Source: Lachnospiraceae bacterium (GTDB taxonomy: Bacteria; Bacillota; Clostridia; Lachnospirales; Lachnospiraceae). Taken from it: DNA of 64,000 bases. Where the stretch lies: NCBI GenBank assembly GCA_017626325.1, contig JAGAIZ010000064.1:951-64950 (forward strand), written 5' to 3'. How positions within the stretch are numbered: position 1 is the first letter of the stretch; every line of letters begins with the position of its first letter. The notes beneath the pieces are model-generated. The model saw only the letters and a program-made list of their open reading frames with translations. It made no database searches and was not told the origin of the DNA. Positions 31,787 through 36,172 of this stretch are shown piece after piece. Both the position numbers and the translations under genes were made by a program.

Positions 31787-31861
31787 TATGTTATAAATGA
31801 TATTTGTGAGACATGCTGATTTATCTGCCTGTTGAGACAGGCAGTCGGATGTGCTCACTAT

Positions 31862-31943
31862 GGATGGATTCCCGAGTGGCCAAAGGGGACAGACTGTAAA
31901 TCTGCTGCAAATTGCTTCGGTGGTTCGAATCCACCTCCATCCA
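31862..31943 (+). tRNA. tRNA-Tyr (anticodon GTA)
   Basis: The acceptor stem GGATGGA/TCCATCC folds by hand. The anticodon loop is CTGTAAA, there is a long variable arm, and the T-arm is GGTGG-TTCGAAT-CCACC. CCA is not encoded. Confidence 0.9.
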
Positions 31944-31947
31944 TTTT

Positions 31948-32033
31948 GCCGGCGTGGCGGAACTGGCAGACGCACAGGACTTAAAATCCTGCGGGGCTAA
32001 CCCCCCGTACCGGTTCGATTCCGGTCGCCGGCA
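31948..32033 (+). tRNA. tRNA-Leu (anticodon TAA)
   Basis: Acceptor stem GCCGGCG/CGCCGGC. The anticodon stem CAGGA/TCCTG carries the loop CTTAAAA. There is a long variable arm, and the T-arm is ACCGG-TTCGATT-CCGGT. Confidence 0.9.
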
Positions 32034-32037
32034 GTAG

Positions 32038-32069: not shown

Positions 32070-32140
32070 ATCCAAGAGCGTAAATTCTGTATACCTAAAA
32101 CAAATCATGAAGCAGATCTTTTAAGATTTCTGTTAATATA

Positions 32141-33082
32141 TCAAAAGCCAATTTCCATAGTTTGGATAATTTCTTCAGGATTCTCTTTCATTCTTGCAAT
32201 GATAGTACAAATACCATGTTCAGAAGTCGGCAAAGTAAAGGAAGCATTGGTATTGAAATCCTGCAGCCAGTACTGTTCATCTTCATTTGGAGTTATGATA
32301 ATCCGGTATTCCATATTGTTTCTGTTAGAGGCAATATGGTAAGTTGTTATTTGTTTTCCATCCTCTGTTACTGCATCTTTGGAATATAATCCATAAAAGT
32401 CAGGATCAGTATTGGCAAGCATTTCCGCATAAGTGGTATAAAAAAGAGAGTAATTTTGTTCGGCATTGCTGGTAAGGACTTGATGCAGTACAGGATTAAA
32501 TAAATTTACGCCGGAGGCATTTAAATGATTATTATCATGGAAACAGGTGTGCTTGTCCAAATTTAAATATTGTTGTTTGATCAGGTTGAAATCATAAAAC
32601 TCCACGTTATATTCAGCAGCGATCTCTCTGACTTGGTTAATATAGTTATCATAATCAAGAGTGCTTATGAGCAGTAGATTATCCATAGGAGAAATAAAAA
32701 GCGTAATGGAAATATCTTCTTGTTGACAATGCTCTATGATTTTACGGAGATATACTTCGCTGATTTCTCCGATTGGATCTTCTCTCAAAGTTCTTCCCTG
32801 ACTGACTAATCTGTTTCCATCCTTGAATTTTCTTGTAGAATATAAATACATTCCATCATAATATTTTGCATAACCGTTTTCGCCAAATTCTTCATAATAG
32901 TTGTAAGAACGATAATCATCGGTGGATTTGGTTTCCTTTATAAAAATATAATTTCCCTTATTTTGTACACAGTTTAGATTATTGTATAAAAAAGCGGCTA
33001 GCGTTTGTTCTGATCTGATCTTTATTACAATGATATTATATAAATAATCAGAGTAAAAGATATTGGCTTGCCATATTTTCAT
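32141..33082 (-). CDS. Hypothetical protein with an SGNH/DltD-like C-terminal block; possibly a 5'-truncated remnant
   Basis: FHDNNHLNASG resembles the DxxH block V of SGNH/DltD-type esterases. No N-terminal Ser block, signal peptide or membrane anchor is present. No RBS precedes the ATG at 33082. The gene is very AT-rich. Confidence 0.4.
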   Translation of the reverse strand: MKIWQANIFYSDYLYNIIVIKIRSEQTLAAFLYNNLNCVQNKGNYIFIKETKSTDDYRSYNYYEEFGENGYAKYYDGMYLYSTRKFKDGNRLVSQGRTLREDPIGEISEVYLRKIIEHCQQEDISITLFISPMDNLLLISTLDYDNYINQVREIAAEYNVEFYDFNLIKQQYLNLDKHTCFHDNNHLNASGVNLFNPVLHQVLTSNAEQNYSLFYTTYAEMLANTDPDFYGLYSKDAVTEDGKQITTYHIASNRNNMEYRIIITPNEDEQYWLQDFNTNASFTLPTSEHGICTIIARMKENPEEIIQTMEIGF

Positions 33083-33259
33083 ATATATAATATGATTATA
33101 TTGTAAAGAAAAGGAAAATAGTGTCGTTTTTCTTTCAAGGATAAACAGAAATGTGTCTAACTCTTCATGATATAATTTGAAAAATATATAGAACGGCAGA
33201 TCAATTATATGAAAAAGAGTACGACCCGATTTACCAAAGAAGAAAGCAAAGGTGATAGT

Positions 33260-33439
33260 ATGCCGACAGTTGAAAACGTAAATTATGAGATGTTTGATTA
33301 TTTAAAGCAAATCAAAGAATATATCTCTGATTTTAAAAAACTGCCCAAGGAAGAAGCACAGAAGAAGGCACATAAAAATCTGATGGATGCGGGAATAGTT
33401 GATGCGAAAGGTGATCTGACCGGTTTTTATAAGCAGTAG
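33260..33439 (+). CDS. Small (59 aa) charged helical protein, candidate partner or antitoxin of the downstream gene
   Basis: AAAGGTG lies 6 nt before the ATG at 33260. The ORF ends 24 nt before the next gene. I recognise no family. Confidence 0.45.
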   Translation: MPTVENVNYEMFDYLKQIKEYISDFKKLPKEEAQKKAHKNLMDAGIVDAKGDLTGFYKQ

Positions 33440-33463
33440 TATTATTACCATTGAGGGTTTAGA

Positions 33464-34051
33464 ATGTACAAGACATTACATAATCTTGTTTTAGGATTTC
33501 ATGGATGCAGTCGTGAAACATATGAAAAAGTTTTAATTAACCACGAAGAGTTAAGTAAAAGCATGAATGACTATGACTGGTTGGGCAATGGCATTTATTT
33601 TTGGGAAAATAGTTATGCCAGAGCACTGGAATGGGCAGAGAGATTTAAAAAGGATGAAGGACCGTCAGTTATTGGAGCAGTTATTGATTTGGGATATTGT
33701 TTAAACTTGAGTGATTATGGTTGTACTGAAGTTTTATCATCGGTTTATGGATTATTAAGTGAAGAATGCCAAATGGAAGGAATTGGGCTGCCTGAAAATG
33801 GTGGAAAAGATAGCCTAAAACCTTTTCGGCGATTAGATTGCGCTGTTATTGAAAGGTTGCATAAACTAAATCAGGAAATAGAACAATCTGAATATGACAG
33901 CGTTAGAGGGATATTTTTTGAAGGAAAACCTATATATCCTAATGCGGGTTTTTTAGACAAAACTCATATTCAGATATGTGTCAGAAATCCAAATTGTATT
34001 AAAGGCTATTTTTCTCCTAAAGAGTATAATAAAAAATTTGCAAGGATATAG
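33464..34051 (+). CDS. Hypothetical 195-aa protein with a PARP-like ADP-ribosyltransferase-fold signature
   Basis: RBS GAGGG lies upstream. The motifs appear in ART order: GFHGCS (His13), GNGIYFWENSYARALEWA (Tyr45), SVIGAVIDLG, and THIQICVRNPNCIKGYF (Gln170 where PARP has the catalytic Glu). The functional call is an inference from motif resemblance only. Confidence 0.55.
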   Translation: MYKTLHNLVLGFHGCSRETYEKVLINHEELSKSMNDYDWLGNGIYFWENSYARALEWAERFKKDEGPSVIGAVIDLGYCLNLSDYGCTEVLSSVYGLLSEECQMEGIGLPENGGKDSLKPFRRLDCAVIERLHKLNQEIEQSEYDSVRGIFFEGKPIYPNAGFLDKTHIQICVRNPNCIKGYFSPKEYNKKFARI

Positions 34052-34071
34052 ATATAATATTTTTAGAGTGC

Positions 34072-34107
34072 AAAAGGGTATCTCGCATAATGGAAATACC
34101 CTTTTTT
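34072..34107. terminator. Bidirectional terminator between convergent genes
   Basis: AAAAGGGTAT (34072-34081) pairs with ATACCCTTTT (34096-34105). The stem is flanked by an A-run on one side and a T-run on the other. Confidence 0.7.
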
Positions 34108-34108
34108 A

Positions 34109-35215
34109 TTACTCCCGATCAACTTTTCTCCAATTCCTGCCACTGTCTATTACACAGAATAAAACGGTAATAAATACAATCCAAAGCTGTACATGATATA
34201 GCCCGTATACCCGACAGAATTCCTCCATGTTATAATACATCACCAGCATGAACGGAAGACAACCGGATATCAGGCGAAACAGCATTCCTCTCATACATAG
34301 ATAGACGGCGCATGGAAGAAGCCATATTGCAATGTTTGACAGGATTGCCTGAAAATTATTTTTCATTTCCGAGGAAATCCAGATACAGATTGCAGTCAGC
34401 ATCACCAGTGCGGCTAATATAATGATTACATATTTTATTACATAAAAGTCGATCCTGCCGCGCACCAGATCATTGAATCCGTAACTATGTGCGGCGATTG
34501 CGGCAGGCACATCGCCGCCATCCAGTCCGAATACAGACCAAAATAATAAAAATGAAATTCCTAAGAAGATAAAACCTGCTGCCAGACAAATCGTAAAGGC
34601 AGCCCCTACCTTCGCAAGGATATCCGTATGGAGTCCGTTCTCTGTTGTAAAAATGAGAGAACGGGTATCATTCTGCCGCTCTTCACTGAACAAGGTGGAG
34701 AATGCAATAATAAACCATGCACTCAAAATCTGTGCTCCCATCTGTAAATAATCTAAAAGCTTTTCCCATCCTTTGGTATATGCAAAGGGAAGCGAAGAAT
34801 CCACATAGATATCTAAGCTGGACTCCGCCATAGGGATCACATGCTCTGCAACTTTATATTCTCCTTCTTCCCATCCCCGCATGTACCCGTCAGACAGATA
34901 ATCTGTAACAAATCCATTTAAATAGTTGGAATCCTGCCAATAGCCGTACTCCCACACTACTTTACTGGGAAAGCCGTATCTTGCAATAATTTGCTCTGCG
35001 GTTTTATCTGTGAAAATACCTTTGTATTCTTCTGTGATTTCCCGGTCTTTCTGTATTGCTTCATAGCCATAATAATCAACGCCGTCAACGGTAGTATGTT
35101 CTTCTGATATGAGCATATAGAAATAGAGCGCCATCCATAACAGCATCAGAACACCTAGCGCAAGGACAAGCTTTTTATGTAATATTTTATATAATTCCAT
35201 TTTGTATAAACGCAT
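34109..35215 (-). CDS. ABC-2-type transporter permease-like polytopic membrane protein
   Basis: One N-terminal helix, a large loop of about 110 aa, then about five helices. It lies downstream of the ABC ATPase. GGAGG lies 6 nt before the ATG at 35215. Confidence 0.7.
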   Translation of the reverse strand: MRLYKMELYKILHKKLVLALGVLMLLWMALYFYMLISEEHTTVDGVDYYGYEAIQKDREITEEYKGIFTDKTAEQIIARYGFPSKVVWEYGYWQDSNYLNGFVTDYLSDGYMRGWEEGEYKVAEHVIPMAESSLDIYVDSSLPFAYTKGWEKLLDYLQMGAQILSAWFIIAFSTLFSEERQNDTRSLIFTTENGLHTDILAKVGAAFTICLAAGFIFLGISFLLFWSVFGLDGGDVPAAIAAHSYGFNDLVRGRIDFYVIKYVIIILAALVMLTAICIWISSEMKNNFQAILSNIAIWLLPCAVYLCMRGMLFRLISGCLPFMLVMYYNMEEFCRVYGLYHVQLWIVFITVLFCVIDSGRNWRKVDRE

Positions 35216-35308
35216 AAGGGACCTCCATCTCTTAACTTTCTTTGTCACAGAAATTCTTATCAAATTTATAATTTGTGTTTATTGCTTATGGTCTGTATTT
35301 AGACCGCA

Positions 35309-36172
35309 TTAAGTGGATAAGTAATACAGATAAGCATCTTCCAGTGTGGGAGCTACATTGACTGCATCTGCCGTAGGAGCAGTATTTGAAACAATTCTGA
35401 GTAATACCCCCTGTTCCACATTCTTAAGATTGCTGACAAGGTACTTTGCACTGAACTGATCGGAATCCTTCTGTGGGACGATGCACTCCCAGACGGCTTG
35501 TTTCACAGGTTTGATCATTTCGTCCGGTGTTCCGCGGACAGCCAGTTTACCGCTCTTCATCATCAGTATCTTATCTGCGATATACTCGATATCCGATACG
35601 ATATGGGTAGAGAGTATAATGATCCGGTCTTTGCTGAGTGAACTGATAATATTACGAAACCGAACACGTTCCTTGGGGTCAAGACCGGATGTGGGCTCAT
35701 CTAAGATTAAAATTTCCGGTTCGTTGAGCAGTGCCTGTGCAATACCCACTCTTTTTAACATACCGCCTGAAAAGGTTTTGAGCTTTTTATCTTTTACGTC
35801 GATCAGGTTTACTAACTCCAATAATTCAGAAACTCTTTTCCCGGCATAGTCATCCGGCAGGGCTTTTAAAGCAGCCATATACATGAGAAAACGCCATGCG
35901 CTGTAGTCAGGATAGTAACCGAAATCCTGCGGTAGATAACCAAGCAGTCTCCGGTAAGAGCCGCCCATTTTTTCAATTTCTGTGCCGTCACATAGTATTT
36001 TGCCTTCGTTTTTTTCCAGCAGACCGCAGATCATCCTCATCAGCGTTGTCTTTCCGGCACCGTTTTCCCCTAATAGTCCGTATACGCCGTGTGTTAAAGT
36101 GACATTTATGTTATTTACAGCTTTTTTTCCTTTGTATTCTTTGCTGACTTTATCCAGTTTTAATTCCTGCAT
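35309..36172 (-). CDS. ABC transporter ATP-binding protein
   Basis: Walker A GENGAGKTT, signature FSGGMLKRVG and Walker B ILILDEPTSGLD. Confidence 0.92.
   Translation of the reverse strand: MQELKLDKVSKEYKGKKAVNNINVTLTHGVYGLLGENGAGKTTLMRMICGLLEKNEGKILCDGTEIEKMGGSYRRLLGYLPQDFGYYPDYSAWRFLMYMAALKALPDDYAGKRVSELLELVNLIDVKDKKLKTFSGGMLKRVGIAQALLNEPEILILDEPTSGLDPKERVRFRNIISSLSKDRIIILSTHIVSDIEYIADKILMMKSGKLAVRGTPDEMIKPVKQAVWECIVPQKDSDQFSAKYLVSNLKNVEQGVLLRIVSNTAPTADAVNVAPTLEDAYLYYLST

Follow-up and report, generated by a model that had tools for sequence, protein, structure and literature searches.

The cassette at positions 33260–34051 of the analysed Lachnospiraceae DNA (the window, a stretch of 64 kb) raises the question of what kind of enzyme its 195-aa product is and what role the small protein encoded just upstream plays. 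The initial annotation had suggested a protein with the NAD-binding core of PARP- and diphtheria toxin-like ADP-ribosyltransferases (ARTs), in the layout of a type II toxin–antitoxin (TA) or abortive-infection module. We consider an autonomous mobile toxin–antidote (type II TA-like) module, in which a novel H-Y-Q ART toxin is paired with a helical-hairpin antidote that is likewise new, to be the best explanation and assign it a probability of about 0.5.

Organization of the locus

The cassette itself is real: re-examination confirmed the two ORFs with a ribosome-binding site each, the gap of 24 nt and the downstream hairpin. The small partner gene, encoding a proposed antidote or regulator of 59 aa, occupies positions 33260–33439 of the forward strand, and its stop at 33439 lies 24 nt before the start of the gene for the 195-aa ART-fold protein, the proposed toxin (33464–34051, forward strand). 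Both ORFs share one reading frame, with two stops between them. An alternative ATG at 33209 would give a small product of 76 aa, and at this length the gene is annotated elsewhere. The ATG at 33260 is nevertheless the likelier start, because a Shine-Dalgarno sequence (AGGTGA, 33250–33255, forward strand) is located 4 nt before it, homologues begin with MPT, and the codon changes relative to an 89%-identical orthologous locus (L144) follow a different pattern on its two sides: the 17 codons upstream carry 3 synonymous and 6 non-synonymous changes, the 59-aa core 17 and 9, respectively. Sequence inspection upstream of ATG 33209 found no comparable Shine-Dalgarno site. The ART gene, preceded by GAGGG at 33453–33457 (forward strand, 6 nt before ATG 33464), differs from its orthologue by 73 synonymous and 21 non-synonymous changes, and both genes are under purifying selection.

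Upstream of the cassette, an extended −10 element, TGaTATAAT (33168–33176, forward strand; TG at 33168–33169, hexamer at 33171–33176), was read from the sequence and is kept in L144 as TGcTATAAT, making it a candidate promoter of the two-gene operon. Further upstream, a promoter-like site (TTGGCT-17 nt-TATAAT, 33063–33100, forward strand; −10 at 33086–33091), which scored 10/12 in a consensus scan, is overlapped by a perfect 6-3-6 palindrome, TATAATatgATTATA (33086–33100, forward strand). The 20-nt block ATATAATATGATTATATTGT is identical in L144 and marks the point, at about 33082, where the DNA similarity of both loci starts; the region 33063–33100 may represent an upstream promoter with an operator.

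Downstream, the terminator claimed for the gene pair is present as the hairpin AAAAGGGUAU ... AUACCCUUUU (34072–34108), which is flanked by a U-run on the forward strand and, at its opposite side, by an A-run. A simple terminator scan gave no match for this hairpin. When folded, the hairpin at 34072–34105 followed by the U-run reached −16.9 kcal/mol (whole 66-nt fold, 34050–34115; z = −3.65), and none of 200 shuffles was equally stable. Probably it is bidirectional and shared with the convergent gene ending at 34109. In L144 the hairpin is missing due to a 48-nt indel.

Concerning the setting, the cassette was said to sit in the most AT-rich stretch of the window and next to a tRNA pair. The former holds, since the twelve 1-kb windows of lowest GC all start between 32101 and 33201 (GC 0.31–0.34, with 0.478 for the whole 64 kb and 0.341 for the cassette). 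The tRNA pair (tRNA-Tyr and tRNA-Leu, 31861–32034) exists as well, but at 1.2 kb upstream and with a 313-aa gene in between, "next to" is a loose description. Apart from these two tRNAs, Rfam detected no RNA at the locus and in particular no leader RNA; a search for att-like direct repeats, which would indicate an island linked to the tRNAs, turned up just short, AT-rich repeats attributable to chance. NCBIfam gave no match for either cassette protein or the two flanking genes.

Fold and putative active site of the 195-aa protein

An AF2 model of the 195-aa protein (pLDDT 87.1, pTM 0.81) shows, together with Foldseek, the split beta-sheet fold of ARTs. Searched against the PDB, it retrieved nearly exclusively ARTs, namely PARP1/2/3/4, tankyrase, PARP10, KptA/Tpt1, NatT, RhsP2 and the anti-CRISPR AcrIF11 (6KYF, E = 0.014), the top matches having probabilities of 0.99–1.0, E-values of about 1e-3 and TM scores of 0.38–0.44. 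Among viral proteins (BFVD), the best structural neighbours are ART-PolyVal (DUF3990-type) domains (E = 5e-5 to 2e-4, probability 1.0). Two helices (87–105 and 123–138) are inserted between the halves of the ART fold. One homologue, P0231, is fused to RHS.

On the sequence level, the query reaches Pfam PARP (PF00644) with 11.5 bits (E = 0.21) over residues 3–82 only and lies, like all Pfam scores of the family, below gathering (26.7 bits for PF00644). However, the same model is matched in the N-terminal half by 26 of the 34 sequences comprising the query and its 33 close homologues (alignment A1; best E = 8e-7), and among 82 distant relatives by 13, a further model, the Exotoxin-A catalytic domain, being matched by four. 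For the N-terminal half, the motif alignment originally made by eye was reproduced by HMMER against mouse PARP-2 (1GS0), with the pairs LVLGFHGC/MLLWHGSR, GNGVYFWE/GKGIYFAD and VLGAVIDLG/LLLSEVALG, in a single match which at E = 0.8 means little alone. Both PADLOC models of PD-T4-9_A, i.e., the toxin CmdT, were matched by all 34 sequences (best E = 7.9e-8; query 2e-6), the match spanning only residues 9–60 against a model of 191 positions, and PHROG 14664 matched the 195-aa protein at full length (2.4e-19). The suggested kinship with DUF3990-type proteins did not extend to membership, as PF13151 was found in none of the 34 A1 sequences and in one of the 82 distant relatives (E = 0.032). When PDB sequences were searched, both the query and the A1 profile gave nothing beyond chance matches (such as ribosomal uS7, a sorting nexin and the complex I 75-kDa subunit), and neither cassette protein belongs to any Pfam, NCBIfam or PADLOC family at the trusted threshold.

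In all 82 relatives, at 35–55% identity, H13, W39, G43, Y45, W47, D125, E153 and F183 are invariant, and H168 is kept in 81 of them; the conserved motifs are FHGC around His13, GxGxYFW around Tyr45, FxEG around Glu153, and His168-x-Gln170. His13 in strand 1 (HG) and Tyr45 in strand 2 (GxYF) stand where ARTs carry their NAD+-site residues. Pfam, the CmdT models of PADLOC, structure model and invariant residues agree on the ART/PARP-like fold proposed initially, and although each line of support is weak or partial, the protein is a real member of the ART superfamily.

The position of the catalytic acid is less uniform. Gln170 lies in the fifth main strand (164–173), as placed by strand order, and this position holds Gln in 78, Glu in two and His in two of the 82 relatives. 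The assignment as an H-Y-Q variant is therefore plausible with respect to Gln170, which fits the [EDQ] position, while the invariant Glu153 competes as catalytic candidate and His168 is a further alternative. An absent canonical Glu could also indicate a catalytically dead pseudo-ART acting by binding only, like domains of the TASOR, PARP13 or PARP9 type, and the pseudo-PARP domain of TASOR was a weak Foldseek match. We regard this as very improbable, since (near-)invariance of His13, Tyr45, GxGxYFW, Glu153 and His168-x-Gln170 among such distant relatives is typical of an active site and a natural H-Y-Q mono-ART, VopU (VPA1312), was reported to be active (VopU preprint, 2026). Its proposed triad H7/Y39/Q141 corresponds to H13/Y45/Q170, with the same spacing of 32 residues between His and Tyr in both proteins. 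This likeness is drawn from the description of VopU, which, in contrast to the protein studied here, is a secreted T3SS effector acting on a host protein and is not reported to have a small partner; the plasmid matches listed for our query included none of the E. coli plasmid homologues of VopU.

The small partner protein

The 59-aa protein is fully structured in its AF2 model (pLDDT 85.6), folding into a helical hairpin (helices 4–26 and 30–44) with a C-terminal beta-turn, and its family (alignment A2) shares the motif L41-x3-G45-[IV]-x4-G51-x-[LF]-x3-[YF] and a basic character (median pI 9.6). No significant match was obtained in Pfam, PDB sequences, PADLOC or Foldseek, and with HTH, RHH, AbrB and Phd matches likewise missing, neither a DNA-binding fold nor that of a known antitoxin can be recognised. 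Resemblances to the GA module and to the HA2 winged helix were sub-significant; helix 2 and the beta-turn resemble the recognition helix and wing of a winged helix at a non-significant level. Besides the basic pI, this likeness is the sole hint of DNA binding by the partner; the palindrome shared with L144 is located upstream of the operon. The PD-T4-9 models matched none of 58 small partners. Database searches with the small protein, which were limited by word indexing, yielded 6 matches with the single sequence and 51 with a profile.

Pairing, abundance and genomic context

Its role as partner of the ART gene, assumed initially, is supported by comparative genomics. The small protein is encoded directly upstream at 81 of 81 loci (80 genome loci and the window), with intergenic gaps of about −25 to +34 nt in the 73 of them where the upstream ORF was picked directly. 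Overall, a family HMM located it immediately before the ART gene at 137 of 143 loci, which stem from many phyla, and reverse look-up starting from the small protein led again to the ART gene. Such a tight two-gene operon with strict co-occurrence is characteristic of type II TA systems.

The family is abundant: clustering of its proteins gives 6,078 clusters at 90% identity and, at 50%, 3,583 representatives. The pair is distributed over Firmicutes, Bacteroidota, Actinobacteria, Spirochaetes, Proteobacteria and one assembly labelled as archaeal, and the family is common in Lachnospiraceae, Bacteroides and Prevotella of the human and animal gut. Moreover, it is mobile: 70 plasmids carry the pair, including Acinetobacter plasmids of 8.5 kb and 13 kb, conjugative plasmids and Pseudomonas syringae plasmids which also hold other TA genes. 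It was also present on 50 IMG/VR contigs, some copies adjoining phage polymerase, exonuclease or tail genes, and three cassette copies reside in a single MAG (L016, L039, L065). Neighbourhoods across 73 genomes are otherwise unrelated. Among 896 neighbouring ORFs, 601 were singletons and no third conserved gene was found; of the 25 most recurrent neighbour Pfam families listed, none occurs more than twice. The patchy, mobile distribution with unrelated flanks is again a hallmark of type II TA modules, and operon tightness, occurrence on plasmids and in phages, and unrelated surroundings all accord with the TA-like layout proposed at the outset.

Enrichment in defence islands, by contrast, was not borne out: the 149 genes within two positions of the cassette in 73 genomes showed none, the clearest defence match being one type I restriction-modification specificity subunit, and nothing recurred apart from generic matches in two to three genes.

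Presence on phages and conjugative plasmids would also be in line with a different role, in which the enzyme serves as offensive or anti-defence factor of a mobile element by modifying a protein of the host or of a rival element, with the small protein being its regulator or adaptor instead of an antidote. Precedents for such ARTs are AcrIF11, phage Alt/Mod and the ARTs of polyvalent proteins. In fact, contigs of true phages hold the cassette next to genes for replication and tails, the closest viral structures are the ART-PolyVal domains of injected phage proteins, and AcrIF11 itself appears among the structural matches. We nonetheless hold this to be unlikely, as most genome loci are embedded between housekeeping genes without mobile-element context, several copies can be present in one genome, and a strict, translationally tight upstream pairing in every lineage would be unusual for anti-defence genes.

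A third option starts from the chromosomal surroundings. In the closest relatives the ART gene neighbours an operon for an ABC-2 transporter with an ECF sigma factor, and in other genomes the cassette is located inside polysaccharide loci; considering also its acidic to neutral pI, the enzyme could be a non-toxic housekeeping, regulatory or resistance protein of the Arr or DraT kind, with the small protein as cofactor or substrate. This appears quite unlikely, given that neighbourhoods are otherwise unrelated, that searches of the query and its relatives against the Pfam models of Arr and DraT gave no match, and that the patchy distribution across phyla, plasmids and phages is better explained by a selfish module.

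Proposed mode of action

For the toxin–antidote module, we propose that the 195-aa protein would act as NAD+-using ART of the H-Y-[EDQ] (PARP/diphtheria toxin) clade, with His13 and Tyr45 holding NAD+ and Gln170 and/or the invariant Glu153, situated in the loop before the Gln170 strand, replacing the catalytic acid. The free enzyme would ADP-ribosylate an essential cell component, leading to growth arrest, and the presumably co-transcribed 59-aa partner would bind and neutralise it and perhaps aid its folding. Because the partner family is basic, the small protein might also repress the operon. The data show the ART fold with its conserved motifs, strict pairing, purifying selection, mobility and the lack of a third conserved gene, whereas enzyme activity, toxicity and neutralisation, the target and any role in plasmid maintenance or phage exclusion are inferred. 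As target, we weakly favour RNA or DNA, since the sequence is in part related to that of CmdT and numerous invariant aromatics surround the active site; modification of a protein, or hydrolysis of NAD+ alone, would be the less favoured alternative.

Several observations speak against this reading of the pair. Gln stands in place of the catalytic acid, a change that lowers transferase activity in other ARTs (discussed in the VopU preprint, 2026). Moreover, the charges are the reverse of those in many TA pairs, as the enzyme, at a pI of 5.6 (6.6 as median of its family), lacks the basic character of the partner family. The partner carries no recognised antitoxin fold and nearby defence genes are not enriched, and the ART matches are individually weak (sub-gathering Pfam scores, low TM, partial CmdT match).

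The same active site leads to a further alternative, in which the pair is likewise a toxin and its antidote and the enzyme kills by hydrolysis or phosphorolysis of NAD+ and not through transfer of ADP-ribose onto a macromolecule. Toxins of the RES/MbcT and Tne2 type hydrolyse or phosphorolyse NAD+ in this way, and Foldseek retrieved a toxin of the RES type, NatT. The enzyme's overall charge, which is not basic in the way that would suggest a nucleic-acid binder, and Gln in place of the catalytic Glu, point in the same direction: exchange of Glu for Gln in diphtheria toxin lowered transfer and raised NAD glycohydrolase activity, and expression of VopU appeared to deplete NAD (VopU preprint, 2026, and work cited therein). 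Yet both CmdT, which is its closest relative by sequence, and the members of the PARP family act as transferases, and the many invariant surface aromatics together with the Glu153 loop resemble a substrate-recognition apparatus, so that we consider killing by NAD+ consumption rather unlikely.

A more far-reaching version of the toxin–antidote reading is doubtful, but worth stating. The cassette could be the founding example of a very large, unnamed TA family, in which an H-Y-Q ART modifies nucleic acid or the translation apparatus in an undescribed way and is restrained by a new class of helical-hairpin inhibitors of 50–60 aa without hydrolase or chaperone, serving the maintenance of plasmids or prophages or, in gut commensals, abortive infection. 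Interest in the part that ART toxins play in bacterial conflict is growing fast: DarT targets DNA, CmdT targets mRNA and RhsP2 structured RNA, and to our knowledge every newly characterised ART toxin family has so far revealed new target chemistry. The family at hand is abundant and annotated everywhere as "hypothetical". A natural H-Y-Q active site with an obligate, non-enzymatic partner of 59 aa would, if true, represent a new mode of neutralisation for ART-based TA systems, and the idea is open to direct testing thanks to pairs in tractable Proteobacteria, such as WP_044311023/WP_005759896 of P. syringae and WP_043963130/WP_169744686 of A. pittii.

Relation to known systems

No description of this pair was found in the literature under its RefSeq accessions, DUF3990, ART-PolyVal, CC0527 or PARP-like TA systems. 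With PARPs and the Exotoxin A/diphtheria toxin group, the 195-aa protein shares the His and Tyr motifs and the order of secondary structures (HG strand, GxYF strand, helix, two strands, [EDQ] strand, final strand); it differs in having Gln for the catalytic Glu and in its lack of regulatory or translocation domains. Likewise, the similarity to ART-PolyVal/DUF3990 domains, which are ARTs tied to mobile elements, is structural only, and they are part of giant multidomain injected proteins, whereas the enzyme described here stands alone and has an obligate small partner. A polymorphic toxin with its immunity protein was rejected as main reading because the enzyme has no trafficking domain and its partner is encoded upstream, not downstream.

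DarTG, ParST and RES-Xre (MbcTA/NatRT) resemble the cassette in combining two genes and an ART-fold, NAD+-using toxin, and folds of NatT and KptA type appear in the Foldseek results. As antitoxin, these systems use either the macrodomain hydrolase DarG or proteins of HTH/Xre type; the cassette's 59-aa partner, by contrast, is a helical hairpin without enzymatic or HTH domain, and none of the models for these systems matched (Pfam-A, PADLOC). Membership in DarTG was dismissed, as the 195-aa protein gave no DUF4433/DarT match in Pfam or PADLOC and its partner is the helical hairpin.

The closest relative by sequence is CmdT, the mRNA-modifying ART toxin of the toxin–antitoxin–chaperone anti-phage system CmdTAC (PD-T4-9). 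Inclusion in this system was rejected in view of the missing CmdA match, chaperone-addiction tail and SecB-like third gene, the SecB family being absent from the 25 most recurrent neighbour Pfam families listed. Compared with CmdTAC, similarity of the ARTs is confined to some 50 residues, the partner precedes the proposed toxin here whereas CmdA is encoded after CmdT, the partner has no long disordered chaperone-addiction tail, and the 195-aa enzyme lacks overall basic charge where CmdT has a positive cleft. Nevertheless, both proteins are ARTs of about 190 aa from the H-Y-[EDQ] clade and match over a strand-helix-strand segment with His and Tyr, in which Tyr45 would correspond to the catalytic Y41 of CmdT by coordinate offset only (query 9–60, profile 6–57). 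CmdA is predicted to start with a pair of alpha-helices, and the 59-aa partner is a helical pair as well.

Organization and setting of the cassette

The pair, which is located in a Lachnospiraceae MAG, comprises a small ORF with its stop at 33439 and, after a gap of 24 nt, the gene of the 195-aa ADP-ribosyltransferase-like (ART) protein (33464-34051), both on the forward strand. For the small ORF, ATG 33260 (59 aa) is the likelier start over ATG 33209 (76 aa), because AGGTGA lies 4 nt 5' of the former with no comparable site before the latter, because homologues of other genomes start at the equivalent MPT, and because of the codon changes relative to L144, the locus of the 89%-identical orthologue: synonymous and non-synonymous changes number 3 and 6 in the 17 extra codons, against 17 and 9 in the 59-aa core. 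The ART gene, with GAGGG ahead of its start, differs from its L144 counterpart by 73 synonymous and 21 non-synonymous changes; both genes of the pair are under purifying selection. Downstream, a hairpin followed by a U-run (34072-34105; -16.9 kcal/mol, z = -3.65 versus shuffles) faces a convergent gene ending at 34109 and thus probably serves as terminator in both directions. It corresponds to a 48-nt indel (34053-34100) absent from L144, where the convergent gene ends are ~10 nt apart.

In a 1-kb GC scan of the 64 kb, the twelve lowest windows all begin within 32101-33201 (0.31-0.34 versus 0.478 overall). The ORFs, their 24-nt gap, the terminator and the low GC content are therefore as described in the initial annotation. 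The tRNA pair said to lie next to the cassette is present (tRNA-Tyr and tRNA-Leu, 31861-32034), but a 313-aa gene on the reverse strand (32141-33082) intervenes. Located where the GC content of the window is at its minimum (about 0.31), this gene shows only weak similarity to GDSL/SGNH hydrolases (E = 0.007), has matches only among contigs of the same organism, and may have arrived with the cassette or close to it.

DNA similarity to L144, the closest relative, begins at about 33082; the downstream ABC-2 transporter operon (34109-36172, reverse strand; ABC-2-like membrane protein, ABC ATPase and a 269-aa protein) is held in common, the upstream flank is not. The orthologous operon (L144:5598-9007) additionally has an ECF sigma factor. 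Two conserved candidate control elements precede the pair, an extended -10 (TGaTATAAT, 33168-33176) and a perfect 6-3-6 palindrome, TATAATatgATTATA (33086-33100), which overlaps the -10 of a second promoter-like site. The palindrome sits in a 20-nt block without a single difference between the two loci, whose overall identity is only about 85%, and could possibly be an operator.

The small partner protein

In the window and each of the 80 genome loci, an HMM derived from the upstream ORFs placed the small protein directly 5' of the ART gene; the overall tally is 137 of 143 loci, with 45 of 50 for viral contigs. The small ORF, taken for a partner in the initial annotation, co-occurs with ART homologues as an obligate partner. 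Spacing ranges from a 25-nt overlap to a 34-nt gap (73 of 81 loci with the upstream ORF picked directly), and a reverse look-up from two distant small proteins again found an ART gene downstream. The family shares the motif L41-x3-G45-[IV]-x4-G51-x-[LF]-x3-[YF], and an AlphaFold model (pLDDT 85.6) predicts a helical hairpin (residues 4-26 and 30-44) that leads into a short beta-turn. No significant relative appeared in Pfam, PDB sequences, PADLOC (CmdA model included) or PDB folds. The small proteins are basic (median pI 9.6), whereas the ART family is near neutral (median 6.6; query 5.6); binding of the small protein to the palindrome or promoter region would be speculation.

Fold of the 195-aa protein

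Several results, none of them strong singly, agree in supporting the ART/PARP-like fold predicted in the initial annotation. The query itself gave only a sub-threshold Pfam PARP match (E = 0.21, residues 3-82), a family recurrently matched by its relatives (26 of 34 in the close set, best 8e-7; 13 of 82 distant homologues, with Exotoxin A catalytic also matched by 4 of 82). In PADLOC, it matched two PD-T4-9_A models, as did all 34 homologues (best 7.9e-8), with only ~50 N-terminal residues covered, and PHROG 14664, of unknown function, was matched over the full length (2.4e-19). The AlphaFold2 model, calculated from an alignment of 34 sequences, is confident (pLDDT 87.1, pTM 0.81) and agrees with PARP in strand order (HG strand, GxYF strand, helix, two strands and, beyond two inserted helices, three strands). 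Its Foldseek hits in the PDB are nearly all ARTs, i.e., PARP1/2/3/4, tankyrase, PARP10, KptA/Tpt1, the RES-type toxin NatT, RhsP2 and the anti-CRISPR ART AcrIF11; top hits reach probabilities of 0.99-1.0, but E about 1e-3 and TM 0.38-0.44. The by-eye PARP motif alignment was reproduced for the first three motifs by HMMER with a homologue against mouse PARP-2, which at E = 0.8 is illustrative only.

Among viral models, ART-PolyVal domains from large phage proteins scored best (E = 5e-5 to 2e-4). The likeness to DUF3990-type proteins noted in the initial annotation was a reasonable lead, ART-PolyVal/DUF3990 domains being the nearest viral structural neighbours, without amounting to membership: scores fall short for DUF3990, as they do for Pfam PARP.

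Conserved and putative catalytic residues

Among 82 representatives with 35-55% identity to the query, H13, W39, G43, Y45, W47, D125, E153 and F183 are invariant, H168, C79 and N112 are conserved in 81 each and R53 in 80. His13 and Tyr45, singled out already by eye, are thus kept throughout and, judged from sequence, correspond to the His and Tyr by which ARTs of the H-Y-[EDQ] clade bind NAD+. Position 170 is Gln in 78, Glu in 2 and His in 2 of the 82 and falls in the fifth main strand, the site of the catalytic Glu in PARP and diphtheria toxin, an equivalence which the occasional Glu fits. Gln170 having been placed by strand order, the invariant Glu153 (FxEG, closing the strand before) and His168 are further candidates for the catalytic residue. 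VopU offers a precedent of a natural, active H-Y-Q mono-ART (H7/Y39/Q141; 2026 preprint), and E-to-Q exchanges in diphtheria toxin and PARP1 lowered transfer without abolishing it (cited in the same preprint). Taken with the position and conservation of Gln170, this renders the H-Y-Q reading of the initial annotation plausible, though not proven, and a dead pseudo-enzyme appears very improbable. The family also has conserved cysteines (C15, C79, C126, C172, C178; C15 and C126 in 73 of 82 each), which might bind a metal or be paired in disulfides.

Distribution and genomic neighbourhood

The ART family comprises 6,078 clusters at 90% and 3,583 representatives at 50% identity, and the pair occurs in species-representative genomes of Lachnospiraceae, Oscillospiraceae, Bacteroides, Prevotella/Segatella, Treponemataceae, Bifidobacterium, Olsenella and Saprospiraceae. 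A pair at 53% identity, small partner included, was seen in a gut-sample assembly that carries the label of a methanogenic archaeon (L079; JAJDHP010000019.1, Methanimicrococcus sp.), reflecting either cross-domain transfer or contamination.

The cassette is mobile. It is carried by 70 plasmids, with both genes "hypothetical" in RefSeq, including Acinetobacter plasmids of 8.5 kb and 13 kb and P. syringae plasmids, on one of which the pair adjoins parA and a RelE/ParE module. A further 50 IMG/VR contigs carry it; one lineage of phage-like contigs of 100-150 kb (L100-L111, L135, L139) shows fixed synteny, with a YonO-like single-subunit RNA polymerase homologue on one side and an SbcD-like exonuclease plus an HU-like protein on the other, and in a second lineage the cassette lies close to a gene of tape-measure size. 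An anti-defence or host-modifying enzyme of such mobile elements seems unlikely.

Clustering of 896 neighbouring ORFs (698 clusters, 601 singletons) revealed nothing conserved around the pair, recurrent clusters deriving from near-identical contigs. Of the 149 genes that lie at most two positions away in 73 genomes, the majority have housekeeping functions (e.g., ribosomal protein L20, tRNA synthetase, chorismate synthase, glycosyltransferases), and no Pfam family is represented three times or more; some copies of the cassette lie within polysaccharide loci. A non-toxic regulatory or resistance enzyme is a reading we regard as quite unlikely. A location in defence islands was not borne out: PADLOC found one type I R-M specificity subunit among the neighbours and, apart from generic hits in 2-3 genes, nothing that recurred. 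One Eubacteriales MAG has three copies (L016, L039, L065), and a Prevotella MAG has two paralogous ones (L034, L051), the ART ORF of L051 being shortened to 147 aa beside an intact small gene.

Proposed function and relation to known systems

Carriage by plasmids and phages, the unrelated flanks and the occurrence of several copies point to an element of the selfish or addiction type. With a probability of about 0.5, we regard the pair as a toxin-antidote-type module, autonomous and mobile, in which the 195-aa protein would be a potentially harmful NAD+-using enzyme, kept inactive through binding by the tightly co-expressed small protein. Fold, motifs, pairing, selection and mobility were seen in the data, whereas activity, toxicity, neutralisation and target are inferred. 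That the enzyme is an NADase toxin is a minor possibility. We lean only weakly towards a nucleic acid as target, in view of the partial relationship to CmdT and of the invariant aromatics that surround the Tyr, described for CmdT as well; however, the enzyme lacks the basic character behind the RNA hypothesis for CmdT.

In its working, the module would most resemble ART-based toxin-antitoxin systems (CmdTAC, DarTG, ParST, RES-Xre), yet it is a member of none of those tested. For CmdTAC, as PD-T4-9 has since been renamed and in which the ART CmdT modifies mRNA, only a partial, N-terminal match to the toxin (~50 residues) was seen, with neither an antitoxin of the CmdA type nor a SecB chaperone nor the same gene order; as to DarTG, no DarT model was matched and the cassette has no macrodomain partner. 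The cassette is real and widespread and, as far as full-text literature searches showed, uncharacterised, no description of the pair having been found. It encodes H-Y-[Q] proteins with an ART fold that make up a family of their own, together with a new small partner.

Variant homologues

In some homologues (P0124, P0132 and P0184; 291-343 aa), an additional helical segment of about 100-140 aa separates the two halves of the ART fold, located where the query has its two inserted helices. In P0231 (692 aa), an N-terminal ART domain is followed by RHS/YD repeats, a DPxG-type cleavage motif and a C-terminal tip, which is an unusual domain order or possibly a gene-call fusion. Finally, short proteins of Synechococcus phage S-B28 (MK016662.1, 24419-24694) and of the Streptococcus satellite prophages Javan248 (MK448383.1, 11267-11473) and Javan16 (MK448341.1, 8262-8450) match only the N-terminal His-Tyr half of the ART, at 36-39% identity.
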